This document shows positions 9,498-60,376 of a DNA stretch of 60,627 nucleotides, piece by piece. The position numbers and the translations under genes were made by a program. The stretch covers positions 12,271 to 72,897 of the forward strand of contig CAZHVT010000003.1 of the NCBI GenBank assembly GCA_964536205.1. Direction: 5' to 3'. Position 1 is the stretch's first letter, and each line of letters starts with the position of its first letter. The stretch is from an uncultured Gammaproteobacteria bacterium. GTDB taxonomy: Bacteria > Patescibacteriota > Patescibacteriia > Magasanikbacterales > GCA-002688135. Under the pieces are notes generated by a model that made no database searches, had not been told where the DNA came from, and was given only the letters and a program-made list of their open reading frames with translations.

Positions 9498-9506
9498 AAT
9501 GGAAAT

Positions 9507-10549: not shown

Positions 10550-10622
10550 GTCATCCCGGCGTAGGCCGGGATCCATCTTGCTAAACAGCATGGATCCCGG
10601 CCTACGCCGGGATGACTTTTTT
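10550..10622 (+). terminator. 67-bp perfect palindrome made of two inverted GTCATCCCGGCGTAGGCCGGGATCC repeat units, followed by a T6 tract; nrdB terminator
   Basis: GTCATCCCGGCGTAGGCCGGGATCCAT..ATGGATCCCGGCCTACGCCGGGATGAC then TTTTTT. Confidence 0.7.
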
Positions 10623-13136: not shown

Positions 13137-13208
13137 CATCAACTGTCATTGCGAGGAGGTACGACGAAGCAATCTATCAACATGGATCCCGGCCTTCGCC
13201 GGGATGAC
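13137..13208. repeat. Two adjacent repeats: variant B (GTCATTGCGAGGAGGTACGACGAAGCAATC) and variant C (CATGGATCCCGGCCTTCGCCGGGATGAC)
   Basis: Compare 8904-8941 and 10550-10616. Confidence 0.7.
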
Positions 13209-13219
13209 AAGGAGAGGAT

Positions 13220-18357: not shown

Positions 18358-19938
18358 TTACGAACCGTCAACAACTTTACCTCCAAATGTTTTGAGGACT
18401 TCTGCGACAGCTTTGTCTGATTCATCTGCTTGCGCCTCATTAACTGTTGTTTCGATGGTGATTGTTGTGTTGTATGTGTCTGTCAGGGCTTTGTGAATCA
18501 TTTCGCGCACTTGTGGTTCATCGATTCGTTTTTTGTGGAATTCGTAGGGGAATGAGAGGGTGAGTTTGTTTTGTTCGATGTTTGTTGGTTTGCATGTTTT
18601 GATGATGAGGGGGAGTGAGTGATTGTATGTGTGGAGATGTTCGATGAATGTACTCCAATTTTTTTGGATGGCAGGGAGTTCTAGTAATTCATTGTTTTGT
18701 GTCGTACTCTCGGGATCCTTCGACTTCGTTTCACTTCGCTCAGGATGACTCGTTGGTGCGGGTGCTTGCACGATTTCTTGATTTTTTGTTTTCTCGTTTT
18801 TTTGTTCACCAGATTTCTCGTTTTCTCGATTTTTTGATTTCTCGACAAAATTTTCAGCGCCAAGTGCGATTTCAACAGCAGACATTTCAAGCGGAAGATG
18901 AATAATGGGGGAGAGTCCGATTTCACGTCGTCGTTTTATTAAAATATCGAGTGTTGATAATAATCGATGAGTCTCTGTGCTATCTGCAATTTCTTGCAAC
19001 TTTTCTTTGTCTGTTGCATTGAAAAATGAATTTCCTACAGATTTTGTGGATTTGAGTAAAAGTAGTGCTCGAACAATGTCGATTGCGTCATCAATCACAT
19101 GGGGGATATTTGCTCCAGTTTCAATTATTTCGTGCAATGCTTTTAGGCTTTGCTGTGCTTCACCTTGTAATGCATGATTCAAATATGCGATGAGTTGTTC
19201 GTTTTTTCGGGTTGGTAATACAGCTTCTGCATCTTTTGATGTCACGGTTTTGTCTTTTGCGACTGCTATGATTTGTCCTAACAAGCTTTCACCATCACGC
19301 ATTGAACCTTGTGCGCGCCATGCAATGTGATCGAGGATTTCATCATCAATTGTTAAGCCCTCTTTTTTTAATAAGTCTGATAATCGATTTTTTATATCTG
19401 CTGATCCGATGTGTTTAAAAATGAATTGTTGGCATCGTGAAATAATTGTTGCGGGGACTTTGTGGGCTTCTGTGGTTGCCATCACAAAAATTGCATGAGC
19501 TGGTGGTTCTTCGATTGTTTTGAGTAATGCGTTAAATGCGCTGGCGGAAAGCATGTGAACCTCATCGATGATGAAGACTTTGTATTTTGAGGATGTTGGG
19601 GTGAAGCGCGCGTTTTCAATGATGTTTTCACGGACATTGTCTACGCCGGTGTGAGATGCAGCATCAATTTCAATGACGTCTATGGATTGTCCTTTTGCGA
19701 TGGTTGTGCAGCTTTCGCATTCATTGCACGGTTCTGCGGATTTTTCTTTTTTATTTTTACAGTTGAGTGATTTTGCGAGAAGTCGAGCAGAAGTTGTTTT
19801 TCCAACTCCGCGTGGTCCGCAAAATAAAAAAGCCGCAGCGAGCGAACCAGAAATAATTTCTTGGGTGAGTGTTTGTGAAACGTGGGGTTGTGCGATGAGA
19901 TCTGTCCATTGTTGAGGGCGGTGTGTTCGGTGAAGCAT
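18358..19938 (-). CDS. dnaX: DNA polymerase III subunit gamma/tau
   Basis: GPRGVGKTT Walker A, Cys cluster CKNKKEKSAEPCNECESC, clamp-loader motifs. Confidence 0.9.
   Translation of the reverse strand: MLHRTHRPQQWTDLIAQPHVSQTLTQEIISGSLAAAFLFCGPRGVGKTTSARLLAKSLNCKNKKEKSAEPCNECESCTTIAKGQSIDVIEIDAASHTGVDNVRENIIENARFTPTSSKYKVFIIDEVHMLSASAFNALLKTIEEPPAHAIFVMATTEAHKVPATIISRCQQFIFKHIGSADIKNRLSDLLKKEGLTIDDEILDHIAWRAQGSMRDGESLLGQIIAVAKDKTVTSKDAEAVLPTRKNEQLIAYLNHALQGEAQQSLKALHEIIETGANIPHVIDDAIDIVRALLLLKSTKSVGNSFFNATDKEKLQEIADSTETHRLLSTLDILIKRRREIGLSPIIHLPLEMSAVEIALGAENFVEKSKNRENEKSGEQKNEKTKNQEIVQAPAPTSHPERSETKSKDPESTTQNNELLELPAIQKNWSTFIEHLHTYNHSLPLIIKTCKPTNIEQNKLTLSFPYEFHKKRIDEPQVREMIHKALTDTYNTTITIETTVNEAQADESDKAVAEVLKTFGGKVVDGS
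18712..18749. repeat. GTCATCCTGAGCGAAGTGAAACGAAGTCGAAGGATCCC repeat inside the dnaX coding sequence (encodes ..SHPERSETKSKDPES..)
   Basis: Same repeat family as the intergenic copies; reading frame maintained. Confidence 0.7.
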
Positions 19939-19946
19939 AAATTTTT

Positions 19947-20064
19947 AGTAAAGCGTAATGAGTAAAGTGTAATGTGGGTAGCAGAGTCGCCATAGGCGAC
20001 ATATTAATACGTCGCCTATGGCGACACTTTTTTACTCGTTACGCTTTACTCATTACGCGTTACG
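19947..20064. repeat. About 118-bp compound palindrome between dnaX and the upstream gene: GTAAAGCGTAATGAGTAAAG arms, twin GTCGCC(A/T)TAGGCGAC palindromes, T6
   Basis: Direct read; likely terminator of 20060-20842 plus a regulatory region of dnaX. Confidence 0.6.
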
Positions 20065-21608: not shown

Positions 21609-24593
21609 TTATTTGACTCCGCTACGTTGTTTAATTTCGCGTTCTACGATTTCGCGGTCGCGGCCGTAGGTAAGGCGAGAGATTTCGATGAGAGCTTCTC
21701 GGAGTTCGGGATCAGAATCTGGTGGGGGGTATGTTGCAATATTAAATGGTCGTGCTGCAGCTCCATCAACCATGAGTTTGATATATGCATTTCGTGCATC
21801 AATATTCATGAGATCGAATTGATTAAATGTTGGTGCAAATTCAGCTGCGAGAAATTCTGCATCTTCAACACCGACACGGAACGCGACTTTTGTTCCGACG
21901 TTACCGAAAATTGCGTCTTTGATCGCTGGCATTTCTTCTAGTTGTCCGATGTATTGATGGGCAACATTTAATATTAAGCGATATTTACGAGCCTCGGAAA
22001 GAATAGTTGCGACAGTATCGGTGAGGTAGTTTTGAAACTCATCGATATACATGTTGAAATCGACGCGCTGATCTTCTGGTGTGTCAGTTCTTCCGAGCGC
22101 TGCTTGAAGGATTTTACCGATTAAAATGAGTCCGAGTAGGTTTGAGTTTTTGTCGCCAAGTTTTCCTTTTGATAAATTCACCAACAAAATCTTTTTATTA
22201 TCCATGATGTCGCGCATGTCCAGTGAACTTTCTTGTTGTCCGATGATCGGTCGCATAATGTCATTGGAAATAAATTGATTGAGTTTTGTGGTGATGTAGG
22301 GGACCATGTTTTGTAGTGATGCTTCACCGCCAGCTTGTCCAGCTTCTTTAATCCAAAAATCTTTCACTACTTGAATGTTACACTTGGATAATTTGAAATT
22401 GCGGAATTCTTCATCAGCTAAAACTTTTGGAATTTCCATGATTGTGTTTCCGGATTCTGGGTGGGACATGTTGAGCAAGATCGCATTTTTTAGATACGTT
22501 TCAAACATTGGTCCGCCGGTCGCTTTTAGGTCGTAGAGACGATCAAGAATGTTGTAGAATTCATTTACGACAAACGCTTTTTGTTCTGGTTTTGATTCAT
22601 CAAATTCTAGAATGTTCATTCCCATTGGGCGGGCGGTATCTGCGGGATTGAAATATACAACGTCGTCAATGCGCTCGGGCGGAACCGCACCAATAATATC
22701 TTCTGCTAAATCTCCATGTGGGTCCATGATGCAAAATCCGTTGCCAAGTTTTACATCTTGGTTTGCCATGTTTGATAAAAGCGTAGACTTACCCACACCA
22801 GTCATACCAATAGCATACAGATGACGACGTCGATCTTTTACTTTCATGCGCGCATCAGTGCGAACTCTTCGATAAATGTTATAGCCTAGGGTTACACCTT
22901 CTGTAGCCATGTTTGGTGGAGGTGGTGCAGAACGTGAAGTGAGCCACTTAATATTTGGTACTTCCAAAAATGGTGTGGGGACATGCCACAAACTTGCCAA
23001 TTCTTCTGTATTTACTAACAGGTGTTTTTTGTCATCGTACTGACGATAAATAAATTGGTTGATGAGTTTTGCGGGTTTTTTTGGAACGTCAGCTTTAAAA
23101 GAATTTCCGACTTTGAAAAGTGTGAATTGGCTATATCCGGAAAGAACATTTTTTAAAATGATTTGTGCTGTGTTGTCTTGTGGGGCTGAAACAACGATAC
23201 GAATATTACAATCCAATCCTGCGCGAGATTGTTTTTCATCGATTTTTTTGATGGATTCTTGTCCCATCTGTGTGGGAGTATAGGATTCTTTTGGTCCTTC
23301 TTGTTTTGATTCACTTCCTACGCTGTATGAAATAGCTGATGATAAATGTGATCCAATTCCTTTTTTGCCTTGCTTCCCTTCAGAGATTTCTTTGCCAACT
23401 CGTTTTGAATGACCCCTCCATTTTTTATGTGCTGATCGTACGATATATTGAATTGCGACTCCTGCATCTTCTCCAACTTTTGTGAGAGGGGTTAAAATAC
23501 TGTTGAGTGGATCAGTTTCAGTTTCTTGATATGTTTTTATGGGATAGGTGAAAGATCTTGAGAATTTAAGGGCTGCCCCCAGAACTACATCCTTTGGTTT
23601 GAAAAAATTATAGTCATCGACTTCTTCGATTTGGATTGCTGGGTATTGTGCCTGCAATTGTTCTTCTATTGATGTTCGGATTCCTTTGGGAACAACAATG
23701 TAAAAATAAATGAGTCCGCCTTGTGCAACTATTTCAAAGGCTAAGTGATCTGATCGTCCAAACAGCCACGCAAAAAACCCTTTTTGCGCTTTCATATTTC
23801 CGATTGTGTTGAGGAATTGCTCTCCGATCGAGATTTGTGCGCGAATTGCATCTATACCGACGTCGCCAGCTTTGTCTTTCAATTGTTGCTCTTTTGGAAT
23901 GGTGATGAGTAGAGTTACAAGGTGGGCGCTTGGTCCGAAGTCATGTTTTCTTCGTAGGTTTCTGCGAACGATGACAACAAGCAGGATGATAGTGATGATT
24001 GATACTACAACAATCCCGCCGATTAACATGAGCTGATTCACGATATTTGTTGACTGGTTGCCAACTGTTTCTCCTGCTCCGTTAAATAATCCTCCTGCTT
24101 GAAATAACATTACTCCGAACAATCCAGGGGTTCCGTTATCCTCTTCGTGTTTTGAGATAAGTGCATCTGCGCGTTTTTTTGATTCTTTTTCAAGGAAGAA
24201 CTTGTTGACGCCTGGAATTAATTTGAGCCAGTTTGAAATAAGTTGTACGAATTTTTTGAATGATGTTTTTCCTTGATCGAGCATGGTTGAGATTTCACGT
24301 GCGACTTTTTCTCCTGTTGTGGCGAATCTTTCTTGTTCTTGTGGATTCATTTGTTCATAGTATTCTTCTAAATCGCGCGACAATAATTCCTCCACTTGTG
24401 TGTAGGTTTCATCGCCGAGCGCAGGGGTATCATCTGTTAGGATGGTTTTGGTGGGTGCGGTCGGTGTGTGTGTTTCGGTTTGTGTCTGTTCTTGCTGATT
24501 TTCTGATTTTTTTTCGATTTCTGGTTTTTTCGATGTTTCGTTTTCTCGTTGTGGGGGTTGTTCTGCAGGAATGAGATTTGGTGATTCAGACAT
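21609..24593 (-). CDS. Membrane-anchored P-loop NTPase of the FtsK-HerA / TraG-VirD4 (type IV coupling protein-like, DUF87-like) superfamily, 994 aa
   Basis: TM segment GGIVVVSIITIILLVVIV; Walker A IGMTGVGKST; Walker B MYIDEFQNY; C-terminal AHQYIGQL region. Confidence 0.65.
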   Translation of the reverse strand: MSESPNLIPAEQPPQRENETSKKPEIEKKSENQQEQTQTETHTPTAPTKTILTDDTPALGDETYTQVEELLSRDLEEYYEQMNPQEQERFATTGEKVAREISTMLDQGKTSFKKFVQLISNWLKLIPGVNKFFLEKESKKRADALISKHEEDNGTPGLFGVMLFQAGGLFNGAGETVGNQSTNIVNQLMLIGGIVVVSIITIILLVVIVRRNLRRKHDFGPSAHLVTLLITIPKEQQLKDKAGDVGIDAIRAQISIGEQFLNTIGNMKAQKGFFAWLFGRSDHLAFEIVAQGGLIYFYIVVPKGIRTSIEEQLQAQYPAIQIEEVDDYNFFKPKDVVLGAALKFSRSFTYPIKTYQETETDPLNSILTPLTKVGEDAGVAIQYIVRSAHKKWRGHSKRVGKEISEGKQGKKGIGSHLSSAISYSVGSESKQEGPKESYTPTQMGQESIKKIDEKQSRAGLDCNIRIVVSAPQDNTAQIILKNVLSGYSQFTLFKVGNSFKADVPKKPAKLINQFIYRQYDDKKHLLVNTEELASLWHVPTPFLEVPNIKWLTSRSAPPPPNMATEGVTLGYNIYRRVRTDARMKVKDRRRHLYAIGMTGVGKSTLLSNMANQDVKLGNGFCIMDPHGDLAEDIIGAVPPERIDDVVYFNPADTARPMGMNILEFDESKPEQKAFVVNEFYNILDRLYDLKATGGPMFETYLKNAILLNMSHPESGNTIMEIPKVLADEEFRNFKLSKCNIQVVKDFWIKEAGQAGGEASLQNMVPYITTKLNQFISNDIMRPIIGQQESSLDMRDIMDNKKILLVNLSKGKLGDKNSNLLGLILIGKILQAALGRTDTPEDQRVDFNMYIDEFQNYLTDTVATILSEARKYRLILNVAHQYIGQLEEMPAIKDAIFGNVGTKVAFRVGVEDAEFLAAEFAPTFNQFDLMNIDARNAYIKLMVDGAAARPFNIATYPPPDSDPELREALIEISRLTYGRDREIVEREIKQRSGVK

Positions 24594-29954: not shown

Positions 29955-29979
29955 GGATTCCCGCCTTCGCGGGAATGAC
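29955..29979. repeat. GGATTCCCGCCTTCGCGGGAATGAC repeat (GTCAT-family variant) in the pilM leader
   Basis: Hairpin CCCGCCTTCGCGGG with the GTCAT-like terminus. Confidence 0.55.
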
Positions 29980-29989
29980 AATTTGTAAT

Positions 29990-31081
29990 ATGGGTTTATT
30001 TTCTAAGAAAGAAGAATCAATTTTAGGAGTTGATTTGGGTGCATCAAGTGTGAAGATGGTGGAATTGAAAAAGGAGAAACACCAAATGCATTTGGTGACC
30101 TATGGATATAGTTCTGGGGATTTGAAATTGCCAGATGATGATTTGGAGCAGAGGAATTTGCAGGCTGCGCTTATTAAGAAGGTTGCGGAAGGTTCAAAGG
30201 TGAAAACAAAAAATGTGATTGCGTCTGTTCCACTATCTGATGTATTTTCTGCTGTAGTTCGTATTCCGAATGTTGCAAAAAAAGAACAATCTGCTTTGAT
30301 TGAACGTGAGGCGCAGAAATTTTTACCTTTTCCTGTTGCCGAGGCTGTGGTTGATTGGAAAGTAATTGAAGATAAGAAAAAGAAGAAAGAAGCAAAGGGA
30401 AAAAGTTTTGAACATCAGAAGAAGGAGTTGGCGAAGGATATTTCTGCGTTGATTACAGCTGCGCCGCGTTCTACGGTTACGAGAATTGCAGATATTTTTA
30501 AACGCGCAGGATTTACTTTAAAGAGTTTGGAAACTGAAGCATTTGCTTTGACACGATCGTTAATTGGAAATGATCCGACAAGTGTATTGTTGGTTGATGT
30601 TGGTGCGGTGCGATCTAACTTTTTTGTGGTTGAAAATACGCTACCTGTGATGCATCGATCTATGCAGTTGGGTGGTGTGAATTTTACACAAGCTTTGGAT
30701 AATGTGTTGAAGGTTGGTTTGGAGAAAGCTGAACAAATGAAATCTGATATTATGTCGACGGGTGCGATTGAAGCGGATGAAACTGGATTTCCGAAAATTT
30801 TTCAACAAACGATTCAGCCACTTATTAATGAGATTCGTTATACCATGAACTTATATACGACACAGCAAGGTGGTACACATCCGGAGCGAATTGTGTTGAC
30901 TGGTGGTTCGTCATTGTTGCCACATTTAGATGCGTTTTTATCACATACATTTAATATGAAAGTGTTTGTGGGAGATCCATGGGCACGAACATGGTATCCG
31001 GAGAATTTACGTCCGGCATTATATGAAATTGGAACGCGTTTTGCGGTGTCTGTGGGATTAGCATTGAGGGAGGGGCAATAA
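29990..31081 (+). CDS. pilM: Type IV pilus assembly ATPase-like protein PilM
   Basis: LGVDLGASSVKMVEL actin-like N-terminus. Confidence 0.8.
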   Translation: MGLFSKKEESILGVDLGASSVKMVELKKEKHQMHLVTYGYSSGDLKLPDDDLEQRNLQAALIKKVAEGSKVKTKNVIASVPLSDVFSAVVRIPNVAKKEQSALIEREAQKFLPFPVAEAVVDWKVIEDKKKKKEAKGKSFEHQKKELAKDISALITAAPRSTVTRIADIFKRAGFTLKSLETEAFALTRSLIGNDPTSVLLVDVGAVRSNFFVVENTLPVMHRSMQLGGVNFTQALDNVLKVGLEKAEQMKSDIMSTGAIEADETGFPKIFQQTIQPLINEIRYTMNLYTTQQGGTHPERIVLTGGSSLLPHLDAFLSHTFNMKVFVGDPWARTWYPENLRPALYEIGTRFAVSVGLALREGQ

Positions 31082-31463: not shown

Positions 31464-31925
31464 ATGGGTAGAGATGAAATGTACTATAAACGCGGTTTTA
31501 CGCTTGTGGAATTGATTGTGGTTTTGGGTGTCATTGGTATTTTAGCTATCGGGAGTGTGTTGGCTGTTGGGTCGACGCGGAAGACTTCTCGGGATGTGTT
31601 GCGTTTGGCGCATATGAAAGAAGTATTTTTTGGCATGGAATTATATTTTAATGAACATGGTGATTATCCGGATGGAGAGCAGGTTGTTCTTGGTTCTGAT
31701 CAGGCGCGGTGTTTGGATGATACTGGTTTTCATCCTGCTGGGGGGTGTAGTGGAAATGTGTGGTTAACAAATATCATGCCAAATCCAGCTCCAGGAGGTG
31801 CTTCGTTTGTGTATTCGTATGATGTTGGTCCGCCGGCTGCTTATAGTATTGATTTTTCACTAGAAGGAGATTCTGCTGGGCTTGTTCGTGGCCAGCATGT
31901 TATGAGGCCTAGTGGCATTCAATAA
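31464..31925 (+). CDS. Type IV pilin / pseudopilin (prepilin N-terminus KRG|FTLVELIVVLGVIGILA)
   Basis: Class III signal peptide motif; alternative start at 31479. Confidence 0.7.
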   Translation: MGRDEMYYKRGFTLVELIVVLGVIGILAIGSVLAVGSTRKTSRDVLRLAHMKEVFFGMELYFNEHGDYPDGEQVVLGSDQARCLDDTGFHPAGGCSGNVWLTNIMPNPAPGGASFVYSYDVGPPAAYSIDFSLEGDSAGLVRGQHVMRPSGIQ

Positions 31926-32045
31926 ATTGAATGCAATGATCAAGTACCAAATTCCAAATAACAGACAAATCTCAAATACGAAATTTTACATTCCAAAGCT
32001 TGCGGCCTCGTGTTTGTGAGTTGAGATTTAGTATTTGTTTGAAAA

Positions 32046-34912
<2,867 letters not shown>

Positions 34913-35355: not shown

Positions 35356-35364
35356 CATCAACGT

Positions 35365-35438
35365 GTCATCCTGAGCTTGTCGAAGGATATCGTGAGGAAT
35401 TTTGATGGGATCCTTCGACTGAAAACGCTCAGGATGAC
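35365..35438. repeat. Inverted pair of GTCATCCTGAGC..CGAAGGATATC / GGGATCCTTCGA..GCTCAGGATGAC repeats between gatC and gatA
   Basis: Direct read; the long ORF-track start of gatA runs through it. Confidence 0.7.
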
Positions 35439-36879: not shown

Positions 36880-37565
36880 GTGAAGAATTTTTGAATAAGT
36901 GTCCGTTACCTCCTGCAATGGAGTTTCGTCTGAAGACGAATCAGAGATTGGATTTGATTCGACAAGAATTTGAAGATGGATTTGCGTTTTTATATCCGTT
37001 TAAGCATGAGATTACTATTTTTGGATCAGCTCGTTTTAAAGAAGATCATAAATATTATAAGATGGCGCGCGGATTGGCTAAGCAGTTGGGTGAAGAAGGT
37101 TATACGATTATTACTGGTGGTGGTCCGGGAATTATGGAGGCGGCGAATCGAGGTGCGACGGAAGCCGGTGCGCCTTCTGTTGGATTAAATATTGAGTTAC
37201 CGATGGAACAACGTGTGAATCCGTATGTTGATGAAGATAAATCGATGGGATTTCATTATTTCTTTTCACGTAAAGTTATGTTGTCGGCGGCTTCTCAAGC
37301 ATATATTGCGTTTCCTGGAGGTTTTGGAACGATGGATGAATTGTTTGAGATGATTACGTTAATTCAAACGAAGAAAATGGAGCGCGTTCCGATTATTTTG
37401 GTCGGACATGAATTTTGGAAGCCGTTGTTAGATTGGATTTCAAGTGAAATGCGTGATGATGAAAAAACGATTTCTCCGGAAGATTTGGATTTGTTTACGT
37501 TGGTTGAATCAAATGAGGAGGCGATGGAGATTGTGCGGACGACTTCGGAGAGAAAGATATTTTAG
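36876..37565 (+). CDS. LOG-family (TIGR00730) protein
   Basis: GGGPGIMEAANRGA and PGGFGTMDELFE motifs. Confidence 0.8.
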   Translation: MSEEFLNKCPLPPAMEFRLKTNQRLDLIRQEFEDGFAFLYPFKHEITIFGSARFKEDHKYYKMARGLAKQLGEEGYTIITGGGPGIMEAANRGATEAGAPSVGLNIELPMEQRVNPYVDEDKSMGFHYFFSRKVMLSAASQAYIAFPGGFGTMDELFEMITLIQTKKMERVPIILVGHEFWKPLLDWISSEMRDDEKTISPEDLDLFTLVESNEEAMEIVRTTSERKIF

Positions 37566-37581
37566 ATAGTATTTCGTATAT

Positions 37582-37633
37582 AGTATGTAGTATGTGGTAT
37601 TCAGCAACCTCACGAGGTTACATACTACATACT
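37582..37633. repeat. Perfect 14-bp inverted repeat AGTATGTAGTATGT / ACATACTACATACT enclosing a second 6-bp hairpin AACCTCACGAGGTT
   Basis: Direct read; between the LOG gene and lgt. Confidence 0.6.
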
Positions 37634-37652
37634 ACATACCATATACCAAAAA

Positions 37653-43183: not shown

Positions 43184-45448
43184 ATGAGTTTGTTTTCGAG
43201 TTTAGATCTTTCAAAACTTACGATTGAAGAATTGCGCGAGCAGATTGTTGGTCGAGATGTTGTGTTGGATGGACCATTTGGTCCTCGGAATATTCTGTAT
43301 GCAGATTATACTGCGACAGGACGATCGATTGAGAGTGTTGACATGGTGAGTGATTCAGATGGATGGGCGGTTGCAGATCAAGGTCAGATTCATCATTATG
43401 ATGGAGTAAGTTGGACGGAGCATACAGATACAGGTAATGAGAAGTGGAACACGGTGTTTATGGTTTCCGCGTCTGATGGATGGGTTGCGGGAGATGGTGG
43501 TAGTTTTGCGCAGTACAATGGCACATCATGGACAGAGTCGAATGCGCCTTCTAATAAAAATATCAATGGTATTCATGTATTGAATTCGAATTTTGGTTTT
43601 GCAGTTGCTGATTCTGGGGATATTCACGAATATAATGGATCGTCATGGGTTGCTACATCATCGCCAACAAATCTTACTTTGAATGATGTGTTTGTATTGT
43701 CTACAACTAATGCGTGGATTGCGGCTGATAATGGAGTTGTATTGCATTTTGATGGAAATAGTTGGACAGAGCAGCAGGATGTGGGTACAGAAAATTTGGA
43801 TGGTATAGCTATGATATCGCCAACGCTTGGTTGGACGGTTGGTAATAATGGATCTATGTTTTCGTGGAATGGAAGTGTCTGGTCTGATGAAGTCGATTCT
43901 GGAACTGAAAAATTGAATGATATTGTGATGATTGATGCGGAAAATGGGTGGGCTGTTGGTGAGGGTGGAAAATTAATGGTCTTGGGTTTATTTTCGCAGG
44001 ATACCGGGACATTTGAATCAGAGATTATTGATAGTGGTAAAACGGGTAGTGATTGGTCGACGGTGTACTGGAGTGAATCTTTTCCTGTGGGAGGTGATGT
44101 GACGATTGCGACGCGTACTGGAGATACCGCAACACCAGATGGCACGTGGTCTGGGTGGAGTGCTGAATTGACCTCTGAACTGGGTTCTTCCATTGTTTCT
44201 GGTGATTCTCGTTATCTTCAGTATCGTGCAACCCTTGATCGTCCTGGTGCTGTTACGTCAACCTCGCGACTGGCGGATTTGACGGTGGTGTACGATCAAC
44301 CAACATCACAGCATTTATGGGATATTAGTTTATTTTCGAGTAGTTCTATTTGGGCGGTAGGAAGTGGTGGGGTGTTTGTTGAGTATGATGGCACGAGCTG
44401 GACGGCAACTACATCTCCTGCAACTTCAGCTGTAGTTTCTGGTGTTGATATGGTTTCAGCGAGTGATGTGTGGGCTGTGACGCAAGCGGGGGAAATGGTT
44501 CATTATGACGGCAGTGCGTTTACTATGCACACGGATACGGGAAATGAAAAGTGGAATAGTGTTGATATGATTACGACATCTGATGGTTGGGCGGTTGGTG
44601 ATGGTGGTGCGATTGCGTATTACAATGGAACAACATGGGATGACACGATTACGTCTCCGACTGGTGTTGTGTTGAATCGCGTTGTGGCGATCGCTACCGA
44701 TGATGTATGGGCTGTGGGAAATTCTGGAGAGATTTTGCATTATAATGGTTCGAGTTGGTCTATTCATACAGATTTGGCAGCTAATTCTGCTTTGTATGGT
44801 ATTTCATATGTGAGCTCCACGAATATTCATGCAGTTGGAACGAGTGGAAAATTTAATGAGTATAATGGAACGTCGTGGTCGGAAATTTTGGATACAGGGG
44901 TTGAAACGTGGACATCGGTAGTGTTAGTTGCGTCAGATGATGGATGGGCTGCGGGAGATGGTGGTGAGCTTGCTCGTTGGAATGGTTCTTCGTGGAGTTC
45001 TGACGTGCAATCGCCTACATCTCGTCATATTTCGCGTTTTGCTATGGTTGATGCGACGCTTGGTTGGGCTGTGGGAAATAATGGAACGATGCTAAAATTT
45101 GAACGTGACGCGCAATATAAGACTGCTGGTATATTTACGTCATCTGCATTTGATATGGGTGATGCGTCACCTACATATGTGATTGAATGGGATGAAACTA
45201 TTCCTACTTGTACGCCTGCTTGTACGGTGAAGTTGCAGGTTTCGACTGCGCCGGATGATGGCGGGTCTCCGGGAACATTTACTGATTGGTATGGAGCTTC
45301 TGGTGCAGGTACGTATTATACTGCGGCTTCAGGCACACTACTTTCAACTGATTTAAACCATCGTCAGTGGATAAGATATCGGGCAACGTTCGCTGGTGAT
45401 GGAATTGAAACACCGGTATTAACAGAGGTTCGTCTCAACTATCGTTGA
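43184..45448 (+). CDS. Large repeat protein: two beta-propeller-like arrays of about 42-aa repeats (..SDGWAVGDGG..I..YNG(T/S)SW..), each followed by an approx. 100-aa module ending ..RY(L/I)(Q/R)YRAT..; pilus-cluster associated
   Basis: About 14 repeats of W-x5-G-x3-Y(D/N)G-x-SW; internal duplication of the domain pair. Confidence 0.6.
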   Translation: MSLFSSLDLSKLTIEELREQIVGRDVVLDGPFGPRNILYADYTATGRSIESVDMVSDSDGWAVADQGQIHHYDGVSWTEHTDTGNEKWNTVFMVSASDGWVAGDGGSFAQYNGTSWTESNAPSNKNINGIHVLNSNFGFAVADSGDIHEYNGSSWVATSSPTNLTLNDVFVLSTTNAWIAADNGVVLHFDGNSWTEQQDVGTENLDGIAMISPTLGWTVGNNGSMFSWNGSVWSDEVDSGTEKLNDIVMIDAENGWAVGEGGKLMVLGLFSQDTGTFESEIIDSGKTGSDWSTVYWSESFPVGGDVTIATRTGDTATPDGTWSGWSAELTSELGSSIVSGDSRYLQYRATLDRPGAVTSTSRLADLTVVYDQPTSQHLWDISLFSSSSIWAVGSGGVFVEYDGTSWTATTSPATSAVVSGVDMVSASDVWAVTQAGEMVHYDGSAFTMHTDTGNEKWNSVDMITTSDGWAVGDGGAIAYYNGTTWDDTITSPTGVVLNRVVAIATDDVWAVGNSGEILHYNGSSWSIHTDLAANSALYGISYVSSTNIHAVGTSGKFNEYNGTSWSEILDTGVETWTSVVLVASDDGWAAGDGGELARWNGSSWSSDVQSPTSRHISRFAMVDATLGWAVGNNGTMLKFERDAQYKTAGIFTSSAFDMGDASPTYVIEWDETIPTCTPACTVKLQVSTAPDDGGSPGTFTDWYGASGAGTYYTAASGTLLSTDLNHRQWIRYRATFAGDGIETPVLTEVRLNYR

Positions 45449-45451
45449 GTA

Positions 45452-45503
45452 AGCGATTAGCGATTAGAGGGTGCTGTCTACTAATCGCTAAACACTAAAC
45501 GCT
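45452..45503. repeat. TAGCGATTAG / CTAATCGCTAAAC hairpin (11-bp stem, 13-nt loop) + TAAACGC repeats abutting the 45511 ATG
   Basis: Direct read. Confidence 0.65.
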
Positions 45504-45510
45504 GTACGCT

Positions 45511-46020
45511 ATGAAAAAAGGATTTACATTAGTAGAAACAATAATTTATATCGGCATTATTAGTATTGTGCTTGTTGCGTTTGTTCGTTTTGTATTGAGT
45601 ATTTCAACAGCGCGTGAAAAGAATTTTGTTGTTGCTGAAGTGCAGGATCAAGCTCGGCATGCTATGGATGTGTTGGGGCAGCGTATTCGATTGGCTGATA
45701 GTATTTTAACTGCATCGTCCACATTTGATGTTGATCCGAGTGTTTTGGCTTTGACGATGACGTCATCAACAATTAATCCGACAGTATTTCAATTGACGGC
45801 TGATAATGGAATTTTGCAAATTACAGAAGGATCCGGAAGTGCGGTTTCTATTACGGGTGATAATTTGCGTGTGACAAGGTTTTTAGTGACTGATACAACT
45901 TCCAGTTCTCCTCGTGGAAGTGCACATGTATATTTAGAAGTTGAGTATAATAATTTGTCAGGGGATCCTCGTTTGGATTTTTCTCAGGAATTTCAAACAA
46001 CCATGGGTTTGAGACAATAG
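45511..46020 (+). CDS. Pilin-like / minor pilin (prepilin N-terminus KKG|FTLVETIIYIGIISIVLVA)
   Basis: Class III signal motif. Confidence 0.65.
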   Translation: MKKGFTLVETIIYIGIISIVLVAFVRFVLSISTAREKNFVVAEVQDQARHAMDVLGQRIRLADSILTASSTFDVDPSVLALTMTSSTINPTVFQLTADNGILQITEGSGSAVSITGDNLRVTRFLVTDTTSSSPRGSAHVYLEVEYNNLSGDPRLDFSQEFQTTMGLRQ

Positions 46021-46021
46021 A

Positions 46022-46105
46022 AATTAGCGATTAGCGTGAAGCGTTTAGCGATTAGTAGGCAGTACCCTCTAATCGCTAAACGCTAAAAGCTAAACGCTAA
46101 ACGCT
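46022..46105. repeat. Hairpin AGCGTTTAGCGATTAG-loop-CTAATCGCTAAACGCT (16-bp perfect stem) in an array of TAGCGAT/TAAACGC heptamers
   Basis: Loop is the near reverse complement of the 45452 loop, so the unit occurs in both orientations. Confidence 0.7.
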
Positions 46106-46111
46106 TTCCTC

Positions 46112-46531
46112 ATGTATTCATCTACCAAACAAAAAGGAGCGGTTGCACTTATCACTGTTATTATTGTTGGTTCGGCTGCTTTAATCATGGCGTTTAATGC
46201 GATTCTTTTGGGGTTGAATGAAATTGAAATCGGGACGCTGCATAAAAAGAGTGCGCAAGCATTTGGGATTGCGGATGGTTGTATGGAGGAGTCTCTTATT
46301 CAGATCAGAAAAGATAATACGTATGGAGTTGGTTCGGGTACAATTTTATTGTCTCTGCTTGATGAAACCTGTACAATAGTGGTAACTGATTTGGGATCGA
46401 ATCAACGTCGCGTGAATGTTTTGTCTACTGTAGATGAGGAATATCATAAACGACTTGAGGTGACGTTAACGTTGACAGGAACGAATTTGAATATTATTAC
46501 GATTGATACGTGGGAGGAAAAAGATTCTTAG
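46112..46531 (+). CDS. Pilin-like protein (atypical N-terminus QKG|AVALITVIIVGSAAL)
   Basis: Hydrophobic N-terminal helix after a G; pilus cluster context. Confidence 0.45.
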   Translation: MYSSTKQKGAVALITVIIVGSAALIMAFNAILLGLNEIEIGTLHKKSAQAFGIADGCMEESLIQIRKDNTYGVGSGTILLSLLDETCTIVVTDLGSNQRRVNVLSTVDEEYHKRLEVTLTLTGTNLNIITIDTWEEKDS

Positions 46532-46537
46532 AAACAA

Positions 46538-46606
46538 GGGATTAGCGTTTAGCATTTGGCGTTTAGAAAGCAGCCTCTAATCGCTAAATGCTAATCGCTA
46601 AACGCT
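46538..46606. repeat. Imperfect long hairpin of TAGCGTTTAGCATTTGGCGTTTAG / CTAATCGCTAAATGCTAATCGCTAAACGC abutting the 46614 ATG
   Basis: Direct read. Confidence 0.6.
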
Positions 46607-46613
46607 TTCATCT

Positions 46614-48368
46614 ATGGACGCGTTTAGTATCTTCTGCCCGCACATGTCATTTCTAAGGAGAACATCTATCGCCATCGATATTAGTGATCGCTCGATCGCG
46701 CTTGTTCGGTTGCAAAAGGGAGCGGGGAAGGTGAAGGTTACACATCATGGTCGAGTTGGATTTCCAGAGGGAATTGTTTCTGCTGGGCGTGTGGTTAATC
46801 CAAAAGCTTTGAAAAAAGTTCTGGATCATTTGTTTGAGGTTGTGAAACCATCGTCAATCAAACCGTCTGAATTGATTGTTTCGTTGGCAGATCAATTGGT
46901 TTTTACGCATGTTTTTGAGCTTGAGCCGCATGACAAGGGTGATCGTGATGATATTGTGGCGGATGAGGTTCGCAATACGATTCCGATTTCAGAACAAGAT
47001 ACACAATTTGAATATGTTGTTTTGCATGAGGATAAAGAGGGGGTGCGCGTGCTTGTGACGGCGGTGAGTAAGAAGGAATTGACTGCATGGCGTAAGATTT
47101 TGAAATTGTCTGGTGTGAAAGTTTCTTTTTTTGATACTCAAATGTTGAGTGTGCATAGAGGATTGTTTAAGGGTTATCCGAGTGATTCTACGCTATTGAT
47201 TGATGTGGGTTCTGTTTCTACTAGTATGTCTGTGTTTGATGAATTTGGATTGTTGTACATTCACACAATTTTTTCTGCTGGGGATGCTATGACTGCGTTG
47301 ATAGCTGAATCGCAAAGTATTTCAATGAAAGATGCAGAGTTATTAAAACGTAATGAAGGATTGTCCAATCCAGGAAGTGCAGTTGCGAGTGTTGCCGTGA
47401 AACATTTAGAACCAATTATTCGTGCGGCAAAAGAATCGCTTGATTATGCAAAAGGTCACGGAGTTGAGGGTGAGATTGATGTTGTTTTGGTTGGGGGTAC
47501 TGCGCGCATGAAAGGTGTGGTGAAATATTTTGAAGCAAATTTGCAGGAGCCTGTTGTGCGAGGTGTTGCGGATTGGACGAAACCAAAATTGTCATTGTCA
47601 TACGTTGGAGCGGCTGGAGCGGCGCGTAAAGGATTGATGAAATCTCGTCATCCGGATCCTGTGTTTGCGACAGAGCGTGCTTCGTTTGTGAGTATGAAGA
47701 ACATGTTTAAGGGTTTGAAAAAAAGTAAAAAGAGTCCAGTTGGTGATACTGAAACAGAACAGATTACAGTTCCAGCCCAAAGCAAAACTATGATGCTGTT
47801 GAGTGTTTTGATGATTAGTGTGGTTTTGTTGGGTGGCGTGTGGTTGTTTCAGAAAAAAGAAAAGAAATCGGACCAAGAGAAAGAGGCTGCACAATCTGTG
47901 TATGTGCATGAATCTACGATTGTGGTATCTGCATTATTGGCAACATCTGATGAAAAATATGGAAGCGATCGTATTTCCGGACGCATTGTTGAAAATAAGA
48001 TTCAGGAAGCGATTAGTTATGGTAATGCAGTTGGACAATCTCGTGAGAAAGCAATGGATACATTGCGGGATGATGAGGTTTTGTGGCCGATTCCTATGTA
48101 TCGCGTTGATGAAGAGTATCCAATTAATTTTAGATGGTTTATGTATAATCAATCTGAAATGGATGGTCGATTTAAGGCTGACATAGATTCTCGAAATGAT
48201 GGAAATGTGGATTATATTATTAAGACAACATTGCCGGTAAAATGGGAATTTACGGAAGATATTGAAGTATTGCGTGTTGAGGCACAAGTTACGATTGCAG
48301 CGCAACAACCGTTTGTAGATAAGGGGGTAGAGAAGCCGGTTATAAAAGTTGAGTCTGTGGATGAATAA
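46614..48368 (+). CDS. PilM-like actin-fold protein fused to a TM segment and a PilN/PilO-like periplasmic domain
   Basis: N-terminal IAIDISDRSIALVRL PilM-like motif; TM at about residue 390 (MMLLSVLMISVVLLGGVWLF); 190-aa C-terminal domain. Confidence 0.6.
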   Translation: MDAFSIFCPHMSFLRRTSIAIDISDRSIALVRLQKGAGKVKVTHHGRVGFPEGIVSAGRVVNPKALKKVLDHLFEVVKPSSIKPSELIVSLADQLVFTHVFELEPHDKGDRDDIVADEVRNTIPISEQDTQFEYVVLHEDKEGVRVLVTAVSKKELTAWRKILKLSGVKVSFFDTQMLSVHRGLFKGYPSDSTLLIDVGSVSTSMSVFDEFGLLYIHTIFSAGDAMTALIAESQSISMKDAELLKRNEGLSNPGSAVASVAVKHLEPIIRAAKESLDYAKGHGVEGEIDVVLVGGTARMKGVVKYFEANLQEPVVRGVADWTKPKLSLSYVGAAGAARKGLMKSRHPDPVFATERASFVSMKNMFKGLKKSKKSPVGDTETEQITVPAQSKTMMLLSVLMISVVLLGGVWLFQKKEKKSDQEKEAAQSVYVHESTIVVSALLATSDEKYGSDRISGRIVENKIQEAISYGNAVGQSREKAMDTLRDDEVLWPIPMYRVDEEYPINFRWFMYNQSEMDGRFKADIDSRNDGNVDYIIKTTLPVKWEFTEDIEVLRVEAQVTIAAQQPFVDKGVEKPVIKVESVDE

Positions 48369-48382
48369 TCGATAAAATAATG

Positions 48383-48391
48383 CTATAATGA
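48383..48391 (+). promoter_or_regulatory. -10 element GCTATAATG 20 nt upstream of the pilin ATG (no SD)
   Basis: TATAAT. Confidence 0.4.
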
Positions 48392-48410
48392 ACTGGTAAA
48401 TAATTTTTAT

Positions 48411-48917
48411 ATGACTACAAAATATTCTGACGAGCAAGGTTTTACGTTGATTGAGTTGTTGATCGTCATTGCGATCATTGCGATTTTAGCGGCAGTTGTG
48501 TTTGTGGCTTTGGATCCACTTACGCGTTTTAAAGATGCGCGTGATTCACAACGGTTCACTGATACGACGCAGATTTTGCAGTCAATTAAATTGTATCAAG
48601 TTGATAATGGTGGAAAATTAACTCCAAATGTGTACGCAATGACAACAGGGTCGGTGTACATGATTGGTACGGGTTCAAGTGGGTGTGATGATAATAATGG
48701 AACATGTGATACAGCCGTTGGTGGAGATAGTTTGTGTGTGGATATTGGTGAGGTTGTGAGCGCTGGATATTTGCCTTCTGTTCCGCAAAGTCCAAATGGA
48801 GATGGAACATGGACCGCGAGTCTAACCGGATATACATTACATAAATCTGCGACAGGGACATTGACAGTGCGTGCGTGTGAGTCGGAGAATAATAGCGAGA
48901 TTTCTGTAGCGCAGTAG
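48411..48917 (+). CDS. Type IV pilin (leader MTTKYSDEQG|FTLIELLIVIAIIAILAAV)
   Basis: Canonical prepilin N-terminus; C-terminal Cys pairs. Confidence 0.8.
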   Translation: MTTKYSDEQGFTLIELLIVIAIIAILAAVVFVALDPLTRFKDARDSQRFTDTTQILQSIKLYQVDNGGKLTPNVYAMTTGSVYMIGTGSSGCDDNNGTCDTAVGGDSLCVDIGEVVSAGYLPSVPQSPNGDGTWTASLTGYTLHKSATGTLTVRACESENNSEISVAQ

Positions 48918-48950
48918 GGAGAAGAAGGAAGTAGGAATTAAGAAGAAAGA

Positions 48951-48978
48951 AAAAGAACGCTAAGCGTTCTTTTTTAGT
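48951..48978 (+). terminator. AAAAAGAACGCTAAGCGTTCTTTTTT
   Basis: Hairpin + T-run. Confidence 0.65.
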
Positions 48979-48984
48979 TCTTCG

Positions 48985-48995
48985 TGTGATATAAT
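48985..48995 (+). promoter_or_regulatory. Extended -10 TGTGATATAAT
   Basis: Abuts the ORF-track ATG at 48996, which favours the downstream start at 49011. Confidence 0.4.
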
Positions 48996-49010
48996 ATGAA
49001 CAAGAAATAT

Positions 49011-49541
49011 ATGAGTGACCAAACGCTAAATGCTAAACGCTTAAAGCTAAACGCTCAAAAGGGTTTTACCTTAATCGAGCTTTTAATTGTAGTAGCAATT
49101 ATTGCAATTCTTGCGGCTGTTGTTTTTGTTGCACTTGATCCTTTGAAGCGTTTTCAAGATTCCAGAGATTCCTCTCGCTGGCATGACATCGCAGAATTAT
49201 CAACAGCGATTAAATTACATCAAGTTGATAATGGAGGATATTATGCGACATCAATTCGTGATTTAGCGACATCCAGTGTGTATATGATTGGTGAGGGAAA
49301 TAGTGGATGTGATGATCAGAATGAATATTGTGCAACAAATGTGAACGGTGATAGTTTGTGTACTGAATTACCTGAAATTTTGAGTGGTGGTCAGATTGCC
49401 GCTTTGCCACAAAGTCCTAATGGAAATGCGTCATGGTCAGCGATTTATACTGGTTATACTATTCAAAAATCCATCACCAATAGTATTACTATTCGAGCAT
49501 GTGAGAAAGAGAATTCAACTGAAATTTTCATGACAAAATAG
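49011..49541 (+). CDS. Type IV pilin paralog (leader MSDQTLNAKRLKLNAQKG|FTLIELLIVVAIIAILAAV); alternative ATG at 48996
   Basis: Prepilin motif; the leader is encoded by TAAACGC-type repeats. Confidence 0.75.
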   Translation: MSDQTLNAKRLKLNAQKGFTLIELLIVVAIIAILAAVVFVALDPLKRFQDSRDSSRWHDIAELSTAIKLHQVDNGGYYATSIRDLATSSVYMIGEGNSGCDDQNEYCATNVNGDSLCTELPEILSGGQIAALPQSPNGNASWSAIYTGYTIQKSITNSITIRACEKENSTEIFMTK

Positions 49542-55345: not shown

Positions 55346-55351
55346 ATGAAT

Positions 55352-55435
55352 TCGTAAAGTGTAATGAGTAAGGCGTAAAGCGTTTGTATGTGGTATTGTC
55401 GAGATCGCATTACGCATTACGCTTTACGCATTACG
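55352..55435. repeat. Inverted CGTAAAGTGTAATGAGTAAGGCGTAAAGCG / CGCATTACGCATTACGCTTTACGCATTACG arms flanking TGTATGTGGTATTGT in the rluB-dnaG divergent region
   Basis: Same motif family as 19947-20064. Confidence 0.6.
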
Positions 55436-55437
55436 AT

Positions 55438-58891: not shown

Positions 58892-60376
58892 ATGTTTAAA
58901 AAGAAACAAGAAGGGGGGGCGGCGAAACCTGCTCCTGCAGCACCTGCGCCGGCAGCTCCAACTGGAGTTGGGATTGCAACGCGTGTTGGTATGTCTACTG
59001 GCGTAAAGGTGTTGATTGGGGTTTTGGTGAGTGTGTTTATTGTTGGTGGAGGGATTGCTGCGTTCATGTTTTTTCGTGTGCCGCCACATCAACCACAGGA
59101 TCCGCAGACATTCTTGTTTCAATCATTTGAACAATTGATTTTGGCTGATGATGTGAGATTTACTTTGGCAGCTCCTGGGGAAACATTGGCTGCGTTGGCT
59201 GGTGATAATGCGGAGGCTGTAGATGAGCTTGGTGTGAAGCCCGCAGATTATACTTTGGGATTGACGCTCGATTTGGTTCAGGTTGATGAGAAGCGTATGG
59301 ATGCTGGCATGATGTTGAGTTTATTACCAAAATCTGGTGAAACTGGTTTTGAGTTGAATACGCGCCTTGTAGATGAGGATTTATATTTTCAATTGGCTCG
59401 TTTGAATTTTCCTGCGATTCCGTTTGCTTTAGATACAATATTGGGAAAATGGGTTGATTTGAATTTTGATGAAGTACAAGAAGAGATCAATTCTTTATTG
59501 GGAACAACAACAGATGAAGAGTCATTGAATCCAGAAGATTATGTGTATCCAGATGTGAAAAAGACGCTTGAGCGTGTGCGGGATATTTATTTGGCGGCGC
59601 CTGCGCTGGATTTGACGTTAGTTGCAGAAGATCAAAATACCGGTTTGGTGACATTGCAAGTAGAATCGAATGATCAGACGAAGGCGTTTATTGTTGATGC
59701 TATTGTTGAGGCATATGTAACATATTTGGAGGCAGTTGATGTTGCGATTAAAGAGAAGGATGCAGTTGGAGAAACAAAGCAGGTTACTGCATTGAAGAAC
59801 TATAAATCGACGTTAGTAGATGAAAATGGTGCGAAAGGAGAATTATTAAGAGTAGAGTTAGATCGTGAGATTGATTTGGATGATTCGTATGGACCAGATT
59901 CTCCATTGGTTGATGTGCAGACAATGTTGACATTGAATGTGAATACTGGACATTTAACACAGATTAAATATGTGTTGGTGTTTAAGGATGGAGTTGTTCG
60001 TCCGCCAATTGTTGGAATGTGGGGTGGATATAATGCGGGGAATGTCATTCAGCGGCCGATAGGTGCGATGTCCGTAGAAGAGTTTTTTGAACTTATTGAA
60101 GAGATGTTTGATGGCGGTGAAGAGGAGGTTATTGAGTCTGATGTTGAATTTGATGTTGTAACTCCTTCGGTTGATACGGATGGCGATGCGTTGAGTGATT
60201 TTGATGAGATGAATATTCATAAGACGGATATCAATAAAGTTGATACTGATGGTGATGCATTGGATGATTTTCTTGAGGTGAATATCTATAAGACTGATCC
60301 GTTGAATGCAGATACAGATGGCGATGGTTTTGCAGATGGAGTTGAGGTTGAAAATGGATATAATCCGTTGAAGTAG
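58892..60376 (+). CDS. Membrane-anchored hypothetical protein with C-terminal thrombospondin-type-3-like Ca-binding repeats (DTDGDALSDFDE x3)
   Basis: N-terminal Ala/Pro-rich segment + TM; three DxDxDG repeats at the C-terminus. Confidence 0.5.
   Translation: MFKKKQEGGAAKPAPAAPAPAAPTGVGIATRVGMSTGVKVLIGVLVSVFIVGGGIAAFMFFRVPPHQPQDPQTFLFQSFEQLILADDVRFTLAAPGETLAALAGDNAEAVDELGVKPADYTLGLTLDLVQVDEKRMDAGMMLSLLPKSGETGFELNTRLVDEDLYFQLARLNFPAIPFALDTILGKWVDLNFDEVQEEINSLLGTTTDEESLNPEDYVYPDVKKTLERVRDIYLAAPALDLTLVAEDQNTGLVTLQVESNDQTKAFIVDAIVEAYVTYLEAVDVAIKEKDAVGETKQVTALKNYKSTLVDENGAKGELLRVELDREIDLDDSYGPDSPLVDVQTMLTLNVNTGHLTQIKYVLVFKDGVVRPPIVGMWGGYNAGNVIQRPIGAMSVEEFFELIEEMFDGGEEEVIESDVEFDVVTPSVDTDGDALSDFDEMNIHKTDINKVDTDGDALDDFLEVNIYKTDPLNADTDGDGFADGVEVENGYNPLK

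Follow-up and report, generated by a model that had tools for sequence, protein, structure and literature searches.

Among long simple repeats, those with a heptanucleotide unit form the most abundant class in many prokaryotic genomes, and DNA polymerase slippage has been proposed as the cause of their excess (Mrazek 2007, as cited in PMC4679880 and PMC4692102). Reported as abundant since at least 2007, they have remained essentially unexplained. Repeats of TAACTGA in Beggiatoaceae, Cyanobacteria and Bacteroidetes lie upstream of start codons that lack a Shine-Dalgarno (SD) sequence and extend to within a few nucleotides of them, and a translational role has been proposed for them (MacGregor 2015, PMC4679880). 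Xanthomonas genomes each carry 70–75 inverted pairs of GGGAATC arrays, which are intergenic, mostly transcribed and of unexplained function (Rehm et al. 2015, PMC4692102); the position of the GGGAATC and GGGGAYT repeats is conserved between species while their length varies. In Haemophilus influenzae, the (ATCTTTC)n repeat of hmw1A is transcribed and forms one arm of a long hairpin in the 5' untranslated region, and its cleavage by RNase III raises expression (Rapun-Araiz et al. 2025, PMC12721329). Here we analyse heptamer repeats in a 60,627-nt stretch of contig CAZHVT010000003.1 (the window), which shows that they are present in a small genome of the candidate phyla radiation (CPR) as well. 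Three palindromes, P1, P2 and P3, consist of inverted arrays of the heptamers CTAAACG and CTAATCG and lie between genes of a type IV pilus cluster; a direct array of similar units lies in the leader-peptide codons of the gene for pilin 2. The class of repeats is known and unexplained; new are the heptamer, the host lineage and the compact palindromic form, in which the repeats replace entire intercistronic spacers. The reading that we favour, with some reserve, is that P1-P3 and the pilin-leader array are a local family (GCTAA plus two variable bases) of generic heptamer palindromes found across phyla, which would be derived by slippage and form stem-loops in intercistronic mRNA.

All three palindromes have the same layout, with a left arm of CGWTTAG units, a loop of 10–13 nt and a right arm of CTAAWCG units (Table 1). 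P1, P2 and P3 are 60, 84 and 71 nt long, start 2–4 nt past the upstream stop codon and end 0, 5 and 7 nt ahead of the ATG codons at 45511, 46112 and 46614, thereby covering 97%, 92% and 63% of their spacers (45449-45510, 46021-46111 and 46532-46643). The preceding stop codons are located at 45446-45448, ending 2 nt before P1, at 46018-46020 and at 46529-46531. Near P3, an extra left-type unit (GCGTTTAG) occurs at 46620-46627, and the PilM gene has two candidate start codons, an alternative one at 46614 and the called one at 46644, which is 37 nt beyond the end of the array; based on the gene call on an identical contig of the Joint Genome Institute (JGI), the start is probably 46644. Tandem Repeats Finder (TRF) detected period-7 arrays at 45452-45467, 46023-46055, 46069-46105, 46577-46606 and 49021-49055, with copy numbers of 2.3–5.3 at all four P-type sites. 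Allowing up to three mismatches, the 16-mer GCTAAACGCTAAACGC had 21 matches, all of them in 45453-49054, compared to 0.32 expected, and none of 100 shuffled sequences reached this number. The inverted arms are complementary, for example over 32 nt with 88% complementarity, and the inner stem of P2 comprises 16 perfect pairs. Folding predicted RNA structures of -22.6 kcal/mol for P1 (z -2.7), -43.9 kcal/mol for P2 (z -7.4) and -40.9 kcal/mol for P3 (z -5.9). The hairpins, which an earlier note made from the sequence had placed directly before the three ATG codons, are real and highly non-random.

The earlier note had also described the hairpin unit in both orientations, and this was borne out, as P1, including its loop, matches P2 and P3 when reverse-complemented. 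In an alignment of the reverse-complemented P1 with P2 and P3, arms and loop were 75% identical and the differences were mainly those of whole units. It appears from this comparison that whole elements, loop included, were copied between adjacent pilus spacers while the genes beside them were not duplicated. A tandem duplication of genes was rejected as the origin of P1-P3, since the flanking genes are unrelated; no paralogy could be detected between the 139-aa gene and the preceding minor pilin-like gene.

The array in the pilin-2 gene consists of six degenerate heptamers that encode part of the leader peptide TLNAKRLKLNAQKG, and the claim that the same repeats provide pilin leader codons was thereby upheld. 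TRF assigned five copies with 78% matches to this array, and no significant hairpin was found there (z -0.63). In its reading frame, a TAA stop would arise at every third unit if all units were canonical; the unit concerned is CTTAAAG, which avoids the stop codon and yields TTA at 49041-49043. The two pilins are paralogues with 58% identity, and the leader of pilin 2 is 13 aa longer than that of pilin 1.

Table 1. Coordinates of heptamer elements and pilus cluster genes in the window.
Feature	Coordinates	Strand	Description
P1 palindrome	45451..45510	+	left arm 45451-45467 (AAGCGATTAGCGATTAG), loop 45468-45480, right arm 45481-45510 ((CTAAWCG)n)
P2 palindrome	46023..46106	+	left arm 46023-46055, loop 46056-46068 (TAGGCAGTACCCT), right arm 46069-46106
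P3 palindrome	46536..46606	+	left arm 46538-46566, loop 46567-46576, right arm 46577-46606
Direct array, six degenerate heptamers	49019..49060	+	CCAAACG CTAAATG CTAAACG CTTAAAG CTAAACG CTCAAAA
Q1	19947..20064	-	heptamers GTAAAGC/GTAATGA ... CATTACG/CTTTACT; between NTP-transferase gene and dnaX
Q2	55351..55436		Q1 heptamer family; 92-nt spacer between divergent rluB-like and dnaG genes
R	37563..37650	+	inverted TAGTATG / CATACTA arrays, z -7.4; spacer between LOG-family gene and lgt
S	31934..32075	+	inverted period-7 arrays CAAnnnn ... TTGGTCA; 150-nt spacer
754-aa protein gene	43184..45448	+	first gene of the cluster; no significant family; AGGAGG-type SD
Minor pilin-like gene (169 aa)	45511..46020	+	N-terminal methylation motif (N_methyl); 3' of P1
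139-aa gene	46112..46531	+	no family match; 3' of P2
PilM-domain fusion protein gene (574 aa)	46644..48368	+	called on identical JGI contig; 3' of P3
Pilin 1	48411..48917	+	no heptamer array
Pilin 2	48996..49541	+	ATG 48996 or 49011; heptamer array in leader

Compared to described systems, the locus shows the tandem 7-nt copies, the period-7 excess and the mainly noncoding location of long simple sequence repeats (LSSRs), including the short tandemly repeated repetitive (STRR) sequences of cyanobacteria (Mrazek et al. 2007, Mazel et al. 1990, as cited in PMC4679880 and PMC4692102). As far as LSSRs and STRRs are described in these two papers, they and the repeats studied here also share several heptamer families per genome and an unexplained function. 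In contrast to these repeats as cited there, the arrays analysed here are short, degenerate and inverted around a unique loop, and their host belongs to the Parcubacteria group of the CPR; a CysS protein that clusters at 90% identity with the CysS of the window carries the NCBI name 'Parcubacteria group bacterium'. With the GGGAATC and GGGGAYT repeats of Xanthomonas and Nostoc, they have in common that the same heptamer occurs on opposite strands, close together within one intergenic spacer, as convergent inverted pairs able to form stem-loops (PMC4692102). However, the Xanthomonas and Nostoc units are G-rich and form G-quadruplexes (PMC4692102), whereas the units CTAAACG and CTAATCG are AT-rich and contain no G tract that could form a G-quadruplex. 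Similar to the TAACTGA repeats, they are located near SD-less start codons (at distances of 0, 5 and 7 nt and with no SD 4-mer, although 72% of the window genes have no SD sequence either), occur occasionally within open reading frames (ORFs), show no functional theme among the genes downstream and are spread over phyla in a patchy manner (PMC4679880). They differ from these in the heptamer itself (CTAAWCG instead of TAACTGA) and in arrangement: the TAACTGA sets in BOGUAY are direct in 169 cases and indirect in one (PMC4679880), whereas those studied here are inverted pairs that are found at stop codons as well. A search of the literature for the exact sequence matched only unrelated primers, and no description of a GCTAANN heptamer was found in the papers searched.

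The same architecture built from other heptamers was identified at four further positions in the window, designated Q1, Q2, R and S (Table 1). Q1 ends 8 nt from the dnaX ATG and is predicted to fold with -66.1 kcal/mol (z -11.6), with a nested 15-bp inner palindrome at 19986-20025. Q2 borders the start codons of the rluB-like gene and dnaG at distances of 5 nt and 1 nt, and its arm sequence is shared with Q1 at a distance of 35 kb. S separates a pilin-like gene (31464-31925) from pilD, the gene for the prepilin peptidase, and covers 95% of this spacer when the pilD ATG at 32076 is used. Altogether, seven inverted heptamer elements of four sequence families cover 63–98% of their spacers. Three of the four P arrays are intergenic, as are all Q, R and S elements. 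Period 7 clearly dominates: 15 segments of the window were detected with this period, two with period 8 and none with periods 9–11, while shuffled sequences gave 0.12.

We then searched for the palindrome core itself, because orthologous pilus-operon spacers could not be compared: a search of 5.8 billion proteins with the PilM fusion gave no homologue of more than 26% identity, the GTDB representative genomes gave none, and only near-identical assemblies turned up as close relatives of the operon. The pattern TTAGCGWTTAG-N8-20-CTAAWCGCTAA was found in 97 metagenome contigs, ranging in GC content from 36% to 69%, and at 71 loci of GTDB representative genomes, giving 168 loci in more than 10 phyla, compared to about 2 expected by chance in 596 Gb according to our own arithmetic. 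The metagenome search missed the contigs of the organism itself though P1 and P2 fit the pattern, and it therefore says nothing on other loci in this genome. The hosts belong, among others, to Bacteroidota, Cyanobacteria, Chloroflexota, Planctomycetota, Nitrospinota, Desulfobacterota, Acidobacteriota and CPR and include Chitinophaga, Balneola, Bacteroides, Chroococcidiopsis, Coleofasciculus, Anaerolineales and Chloroflexus as well as Rubripirellula, members of the Nitrospinota, Desulfobacterium, Blastocatellia and Doudna-, Peregrini- and Saccharibacteria. Nearly all matches are flanked by further heptamer units. The spacers bearing the palindrome have a median length of 87 nt; 94 palindromes are located between co-directional, 16 between convergent and 9 between divergent genes, and one is intragenic. 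The arrays in these genomes touch stop codons as often as start codons, and in many cases the stop codon is itself part of the array. Among the genes that begin directly after a palindrome are rpe, rpsG, pdxT, mutM, rplL, ssb and argB, and dnaE is a further core gene found beside it. In seven Anaerolineales-like genomes (L028, L040, L074, L075, L121, L163 and L166), the palindrome is kept in the spacer between pdxS and pdxT. These seven copies differ in unit sequence and unit number and provide a natural series for the evolution of the element.

Within the 1.1 Mb of sequence fetched around the loci, 142 further period-7 arrays were identified compared to 17 with period 8, and 27 of the 142 have the GCTAA core. 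In 300 units outside the search pattern, this core was kept at 56–82%, while G amounted to only 3–9% at the two variable positions. All eight pairs with a GCTAA core that had not been selected by the search showed the polarity 5'-(NNTTAGC)n-loop-(GCTAANN)n-3'; in viral contigs, the corresponding counts of 2 and 0 were too few to be used. In Balneola and relatives, the palindrome is part of a multi-copy unit with conserved flanks (AATGACATTAATTAAATAAC ... AAAAGCTTTTAYTAYTATGAA) that occurs in several copies per chromosome (L146 at 946-982 and 3443-3479; L160, L118, L150, L078, L086, L088, L094, L109, L134 and L145), which suggests a larger repeated or mobile unit.

These findings bear on the proposal of the earlier note that the hairpins are a translational or antitermination element specific to the pilus operon, by which the pilus genes would be co-regulated. 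In its favour, the exact CGCTAAW heptamer was restricted to this pilus cluster in the 75.8 kb available for the organism. Neither a P-type motif nor a heptamer array occurred in the approximately 15 kb beyond the window ends. In the available sequence, the motif is thus confined to the pilus locus as an exact sequence, but the architecture is not, since it recurs with other heptamers in the window. Heptamer palindromes occupy 4 of 10 junctions in the pilus cluster and 3 of 45 other junctions (Fisher p = 0.016); however, with P1-P3 taken as a single copying event, this excess disappears (p = 0.22). The second pilus cluster in the window has a different heptamer (S), and arrays are absent from pilin 1, from the gene at 49541 (219 aa) and from the gene for the pilT-like ATPase. 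The genes concerned are also not four consecutive ones, as had been stated, since pilin 1 intervenes. The reported lack of SD sequences is correct in that no SD 4-mer precedes these genes, but it does not discriminate, as an SD-like 4-mer was found for only 13 of the 47 genes in the window and four genes without one are expected by chance with a probability of 0.72^4 = 0.27. Identical palindromes stand beside housekeeping genes in many phyla. As the hairpins belong to a widespread class that fills spacers in many phyla, we conclude from the sequence comparisons that the pilus-specific interpretation is not supported, and we consider it very improbable.

With regard to antitermination, a scan detected no promoter-like or terminator-like site at P1-P3, where the stems are followed by T runs of at most 3; the GC-rich stem with U tract typical for intrinsic terminators is absent from these elements, and there is accordingly no terminator to be antiterminated. 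A comparison of the window with Rfam 15 yielded only three tRNAs at the gathering score, and nothing relevant was found in 45300-49200 at E ≤ 1. A terminator/antiterminator function was rejected for lack of a U tract and of an Rfam match. A pilus-linked DNA uptake sequence was rejected as well, because the motif is limited to one 3.6-kb stretch and the same sequence occurs in unrelated phyla. The region's only terminator-like hairpin is found 3' of pilin 1 at 48949-48975; its stem, AACGC-TAA-GCGTT, corresponds to one P unit and its complement in opposite polarity, which may be coincidence.

A translational or RNA-level role that is generic and post-transcriptional is possible, as there are precedents in the TAACTGA repeats, for which such a role was proposed (PMC4679880), and in hmw1A, where experiments demonstrated an RNase III-dependent role for a different heptamer (PMC12721329). 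According to the reading favoured here, 7-nt units would be gained and lost by replication slippage, and inverted arrays would be made or kept alike by intrastrand template switching or recombination; one array would have spread into the leader of pilin 2, a tolerant sequence that is cleaved off. We propose that the elements persist because nothing in these spacers constrains them, neither a promoter nor an SD sequence nor any other feature, and that they grow until they reach the stop codon on one side and the start codon on the other. In a polycistronic pilus mRNA, each element would form a long stem-loop whose base joins the upstream stop to the downstream start codon. The likeliest effect would be post-transcriptional, with the stem-loops serving as sites for RNase III or for structure-dependent processing or stability; SD-less initiation downstream might also depend on ribosomes that melt the stem while terminating upstream. 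Either effect would set the relative expression of the cistrons.

Several observations weigh against this reading. No element differs in copy number between the available assemblies, but each of these shares at least 99.8% identity with the window, so that active slippage is a supposition for this locus. The arrays are short (2–5 units) and imperfect. Antisense folds are as stable as or more stable than sense folds in four of the seven elements, with few G-U pairs. For the seven orthologous pdxS-pdxT spacers, RNAalifold detected no compensatory pairs; only the constant cores paired there, and the repeat register makes the alignment unreliable. The outer units of the two arms are only weakly mirror-complementary. 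Neither the uneven conservation of the unit, with GCTAA kept, two free positions and G avoided, nor the single polarity of all eight unselected pairs is predicted by neutral slippage. Finally, Q2, which is located between divergent genes, cannot act through translational coupling.

In a rival reading, the repeats would be selectively neutral filler, by-products of slippage and template switching that are tolerated in unconstrained spacers and in a disposable pilin leader and would have no effect on expression. Consistent with this, the elements occur in every gene orientation and beside unrelated genes, neither covariation nor strand bias was found, most window genes have no SD sequence regardless, and the function of such repeats is left unexplained in the literature (PMC4692102). 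On the other hand, predicted stems of 16–34 pairs with -40 to -66 kcal/mol are unlikely to be inconsequential inside mRNAs, the pentamer core is conserved with avoidance of G and a fixed polarity, and the pdxS-pdxT palindrome is kept in seven related genomes. We regard neutral filler as rather unlikely, though it deserves serious consideration. An all-frame stop barrier with stop codons concentrated in the 5' arm was tried and rejected, as the 73 inverted pairs gave 8 versus 8.

The conserved pentamer core, the G-avoiding variable positions and the fixed polarity may also set the GCTAANN palindromes apart as a distinct cross-phylum element that is read by a conserved nucleic-acid-binding factor or spread by a specific palindrome-copying mechanism. 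We consider this unlikely at present. If true, these palindromes would organise expression at gene junctions in SD-poor lineages and would not be passive slippage products.

An origin from non-autonomous mobile palindromes, of which P1-P3 and Q1/Q2 would be insertions, appears improbable. Intergenic palindromes that are often located in operons are known from proteobacteria as repetitive extragenic palindromic (REP) sequences, bacterial interspersed mosaic elements (BIMEs) and REP doublets forming hairpins (REPINs); they stabilise mRNA or act as barriers, are found in either orientation and may be nested or composite. REPs are GC-rich, have a fixed sequence with no 7-nt sub-periodicity, are present in hundreds of copies and are linked to the REP-associated tyrosine transposase (RAYT). 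P1-P3 resemble REPs and BIMEs as intergenic palindromes within an operon that occur in both orientations, but differ from REPs in their 7-nt sub-periodicity. In this scenario, the palindromes would be similar to MITEs (miniature transposable elements with inverted repeats) or REPINs, with heptamer sub-repeats seen by a transposase. It would explain that entire elements recur with their loops, that one copy (P1) is inverted, that Q1 and Q2 share arm sequence over 35 kb, that a second palindrome is nested in the Q1 loop and that the same heptamer has a patchy phyletic spread. However, an inverted loop is expected of any palindrome. The borders of the elements show no visible target-site duplication, the copies vary by whole 7-nt units and have no fixed length, and instead of dispersed copies only 3 + 1 local ones occur in 76 kb, all within 3.6 kb. 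No transposase was detected among the approximately 30 window ORFs scanned with Pfam, a scan that covered only part of the ORFs. The nested sequence in the Q1 loop (19986-20025) consists of two copies of a palindromic 15-nt sequence (GTCGCCATAGGCGAC / GTCGCCTATGGCGAC) that form a nested 18-bp hairpin; T6 follows on the + strand, whereas the neighbouring genes are on the - strand. A nested palindrome is likewise present in the Rubripirellula locus L122 at approximately 6136-6267.

The 7-nt periodicity had also been taken as a possible protein-binding site. In plasmid pSM19035, the omega protein binds 7-bp heptads (WATCACW) that form direct or inverted arrays with a conserved core at the promoters of one plasmid regulon. 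Operator arrays of this kind, in which each heptad would be bound at the DNA level by one dimer of a small omega-like repressor or by a nucleoid protein, would account for the strict 7-bp period, the conserved 5-bp core with two free positions, the presence of both direct and inverted arrangements and the fixed polarity. In contrast to the omega heptads, many sequences are found here, at sites within operons and with no known cognate protein. A protein-binding role is disfavoured because several unrelated heptamers, at least four within the 60-kb window, occur in one genome and about 13% of the palindromes (16 of 119) are located between convergent genes. P1-P3 lie in intra-operon spacers with no promoter-like site, and no small DNA-binding family was found among the small window ORFs scanned. 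We therefore hold operator arrays to be improbable as well.

A further candidate is a contingency locus, in which slippage by 7 nt would switch pilus genes through frameshifts in the pilin-2 leader or grade their expression, as in the hmw system. As 7 is not a multiple of three, such an array within the leader of a surface protein could shift the frame, and the hmw genes of H. influenzae provide a precedent (PMC12721329). A comparable arrangement is the hmw1A heptamer repeat upstream of a surface-adhesin gene (PMC12721329); the hairpins studied here are predicted, and their transcription is inferred from operon position. In hmw1A, at least 11 perfect repeats pair with a non-repeat, G-rich arm, phase variation by copy number is proven and a single locus is involved (PMC12721329); none of these features is demonstrated here. 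The pilin-2 units are degenerate (Tandem Repeats Finder matches as given above) compared to the at least 11 near-perfect repeats that hmw requires (PMC12721329), and the arrays are identical across all independent assemblies. We give a contingency locus hardly any weight.

At the level of the locus, the value of the analysis is that a generic repeat is no longer taken for a pilus regulator. The GCTAA-core palindrome, with one polarity in more than 10 phyla, forms a searchable family in which it can be tested whether such repeats are neutral, structural or actively recognised. Its interest would rise if the core and the polarity reflect a specific factor or copying mechanism.

In the pilus cluster, the genes listed in Table 1 are followed by the 219-aa ORF at 49541 and then by the PilT-like ATPase gene. 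The second cluster comprises a PilM-like gene (29975-31081), a gene for a receiver-domain protein, the pilin-like gene and the prepilin peptidase gene (32076-32813; A24_N_bact and Peptidase_A24 domains); a spurious ORF of greater length on the other strand masks the last of these genes. A different intergenic repeat family, based on GGGATGAC / GTCATCC(C/T)G, was observed at 9464-9502, 10550-10616, 13199-13210, 8795-8808 and 35363-35374. A tandem duplication of 20 nt and a perfect palindrome of 27 nt (10550-10616) belong to this family, while its 12-mer count alone is not significant (12 compared to 5.8 expected). Arrays with a period of 8 or 16 (TTTCTCGATTTTTTGT-like) are located at 18774-18845 and 24509-24552 within the coding sequences of dnaX and of a 994-aa gene on the - strand. 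At 60170-60326, a 69-nt tandem repeat of about two copies with 75–81% matches is part of a gene encoding a 494-aa protein, which has faint matches to TSP3-type repeats; the L103 strain differs at five positions in this repeat. Approximately 5 kb past the right end of the window, the same strain as that of the window carries a gene pair for an EcoRI-like endonuclease and a methylase (L180, 15649-17484). Finally, a 551-aa protein encoded at 1408-3063 on the - strand has Vault_3, MVP_shoulder and Band_7 domains and resembles the major vault protein, which is unusual for a small CPR-type genome.

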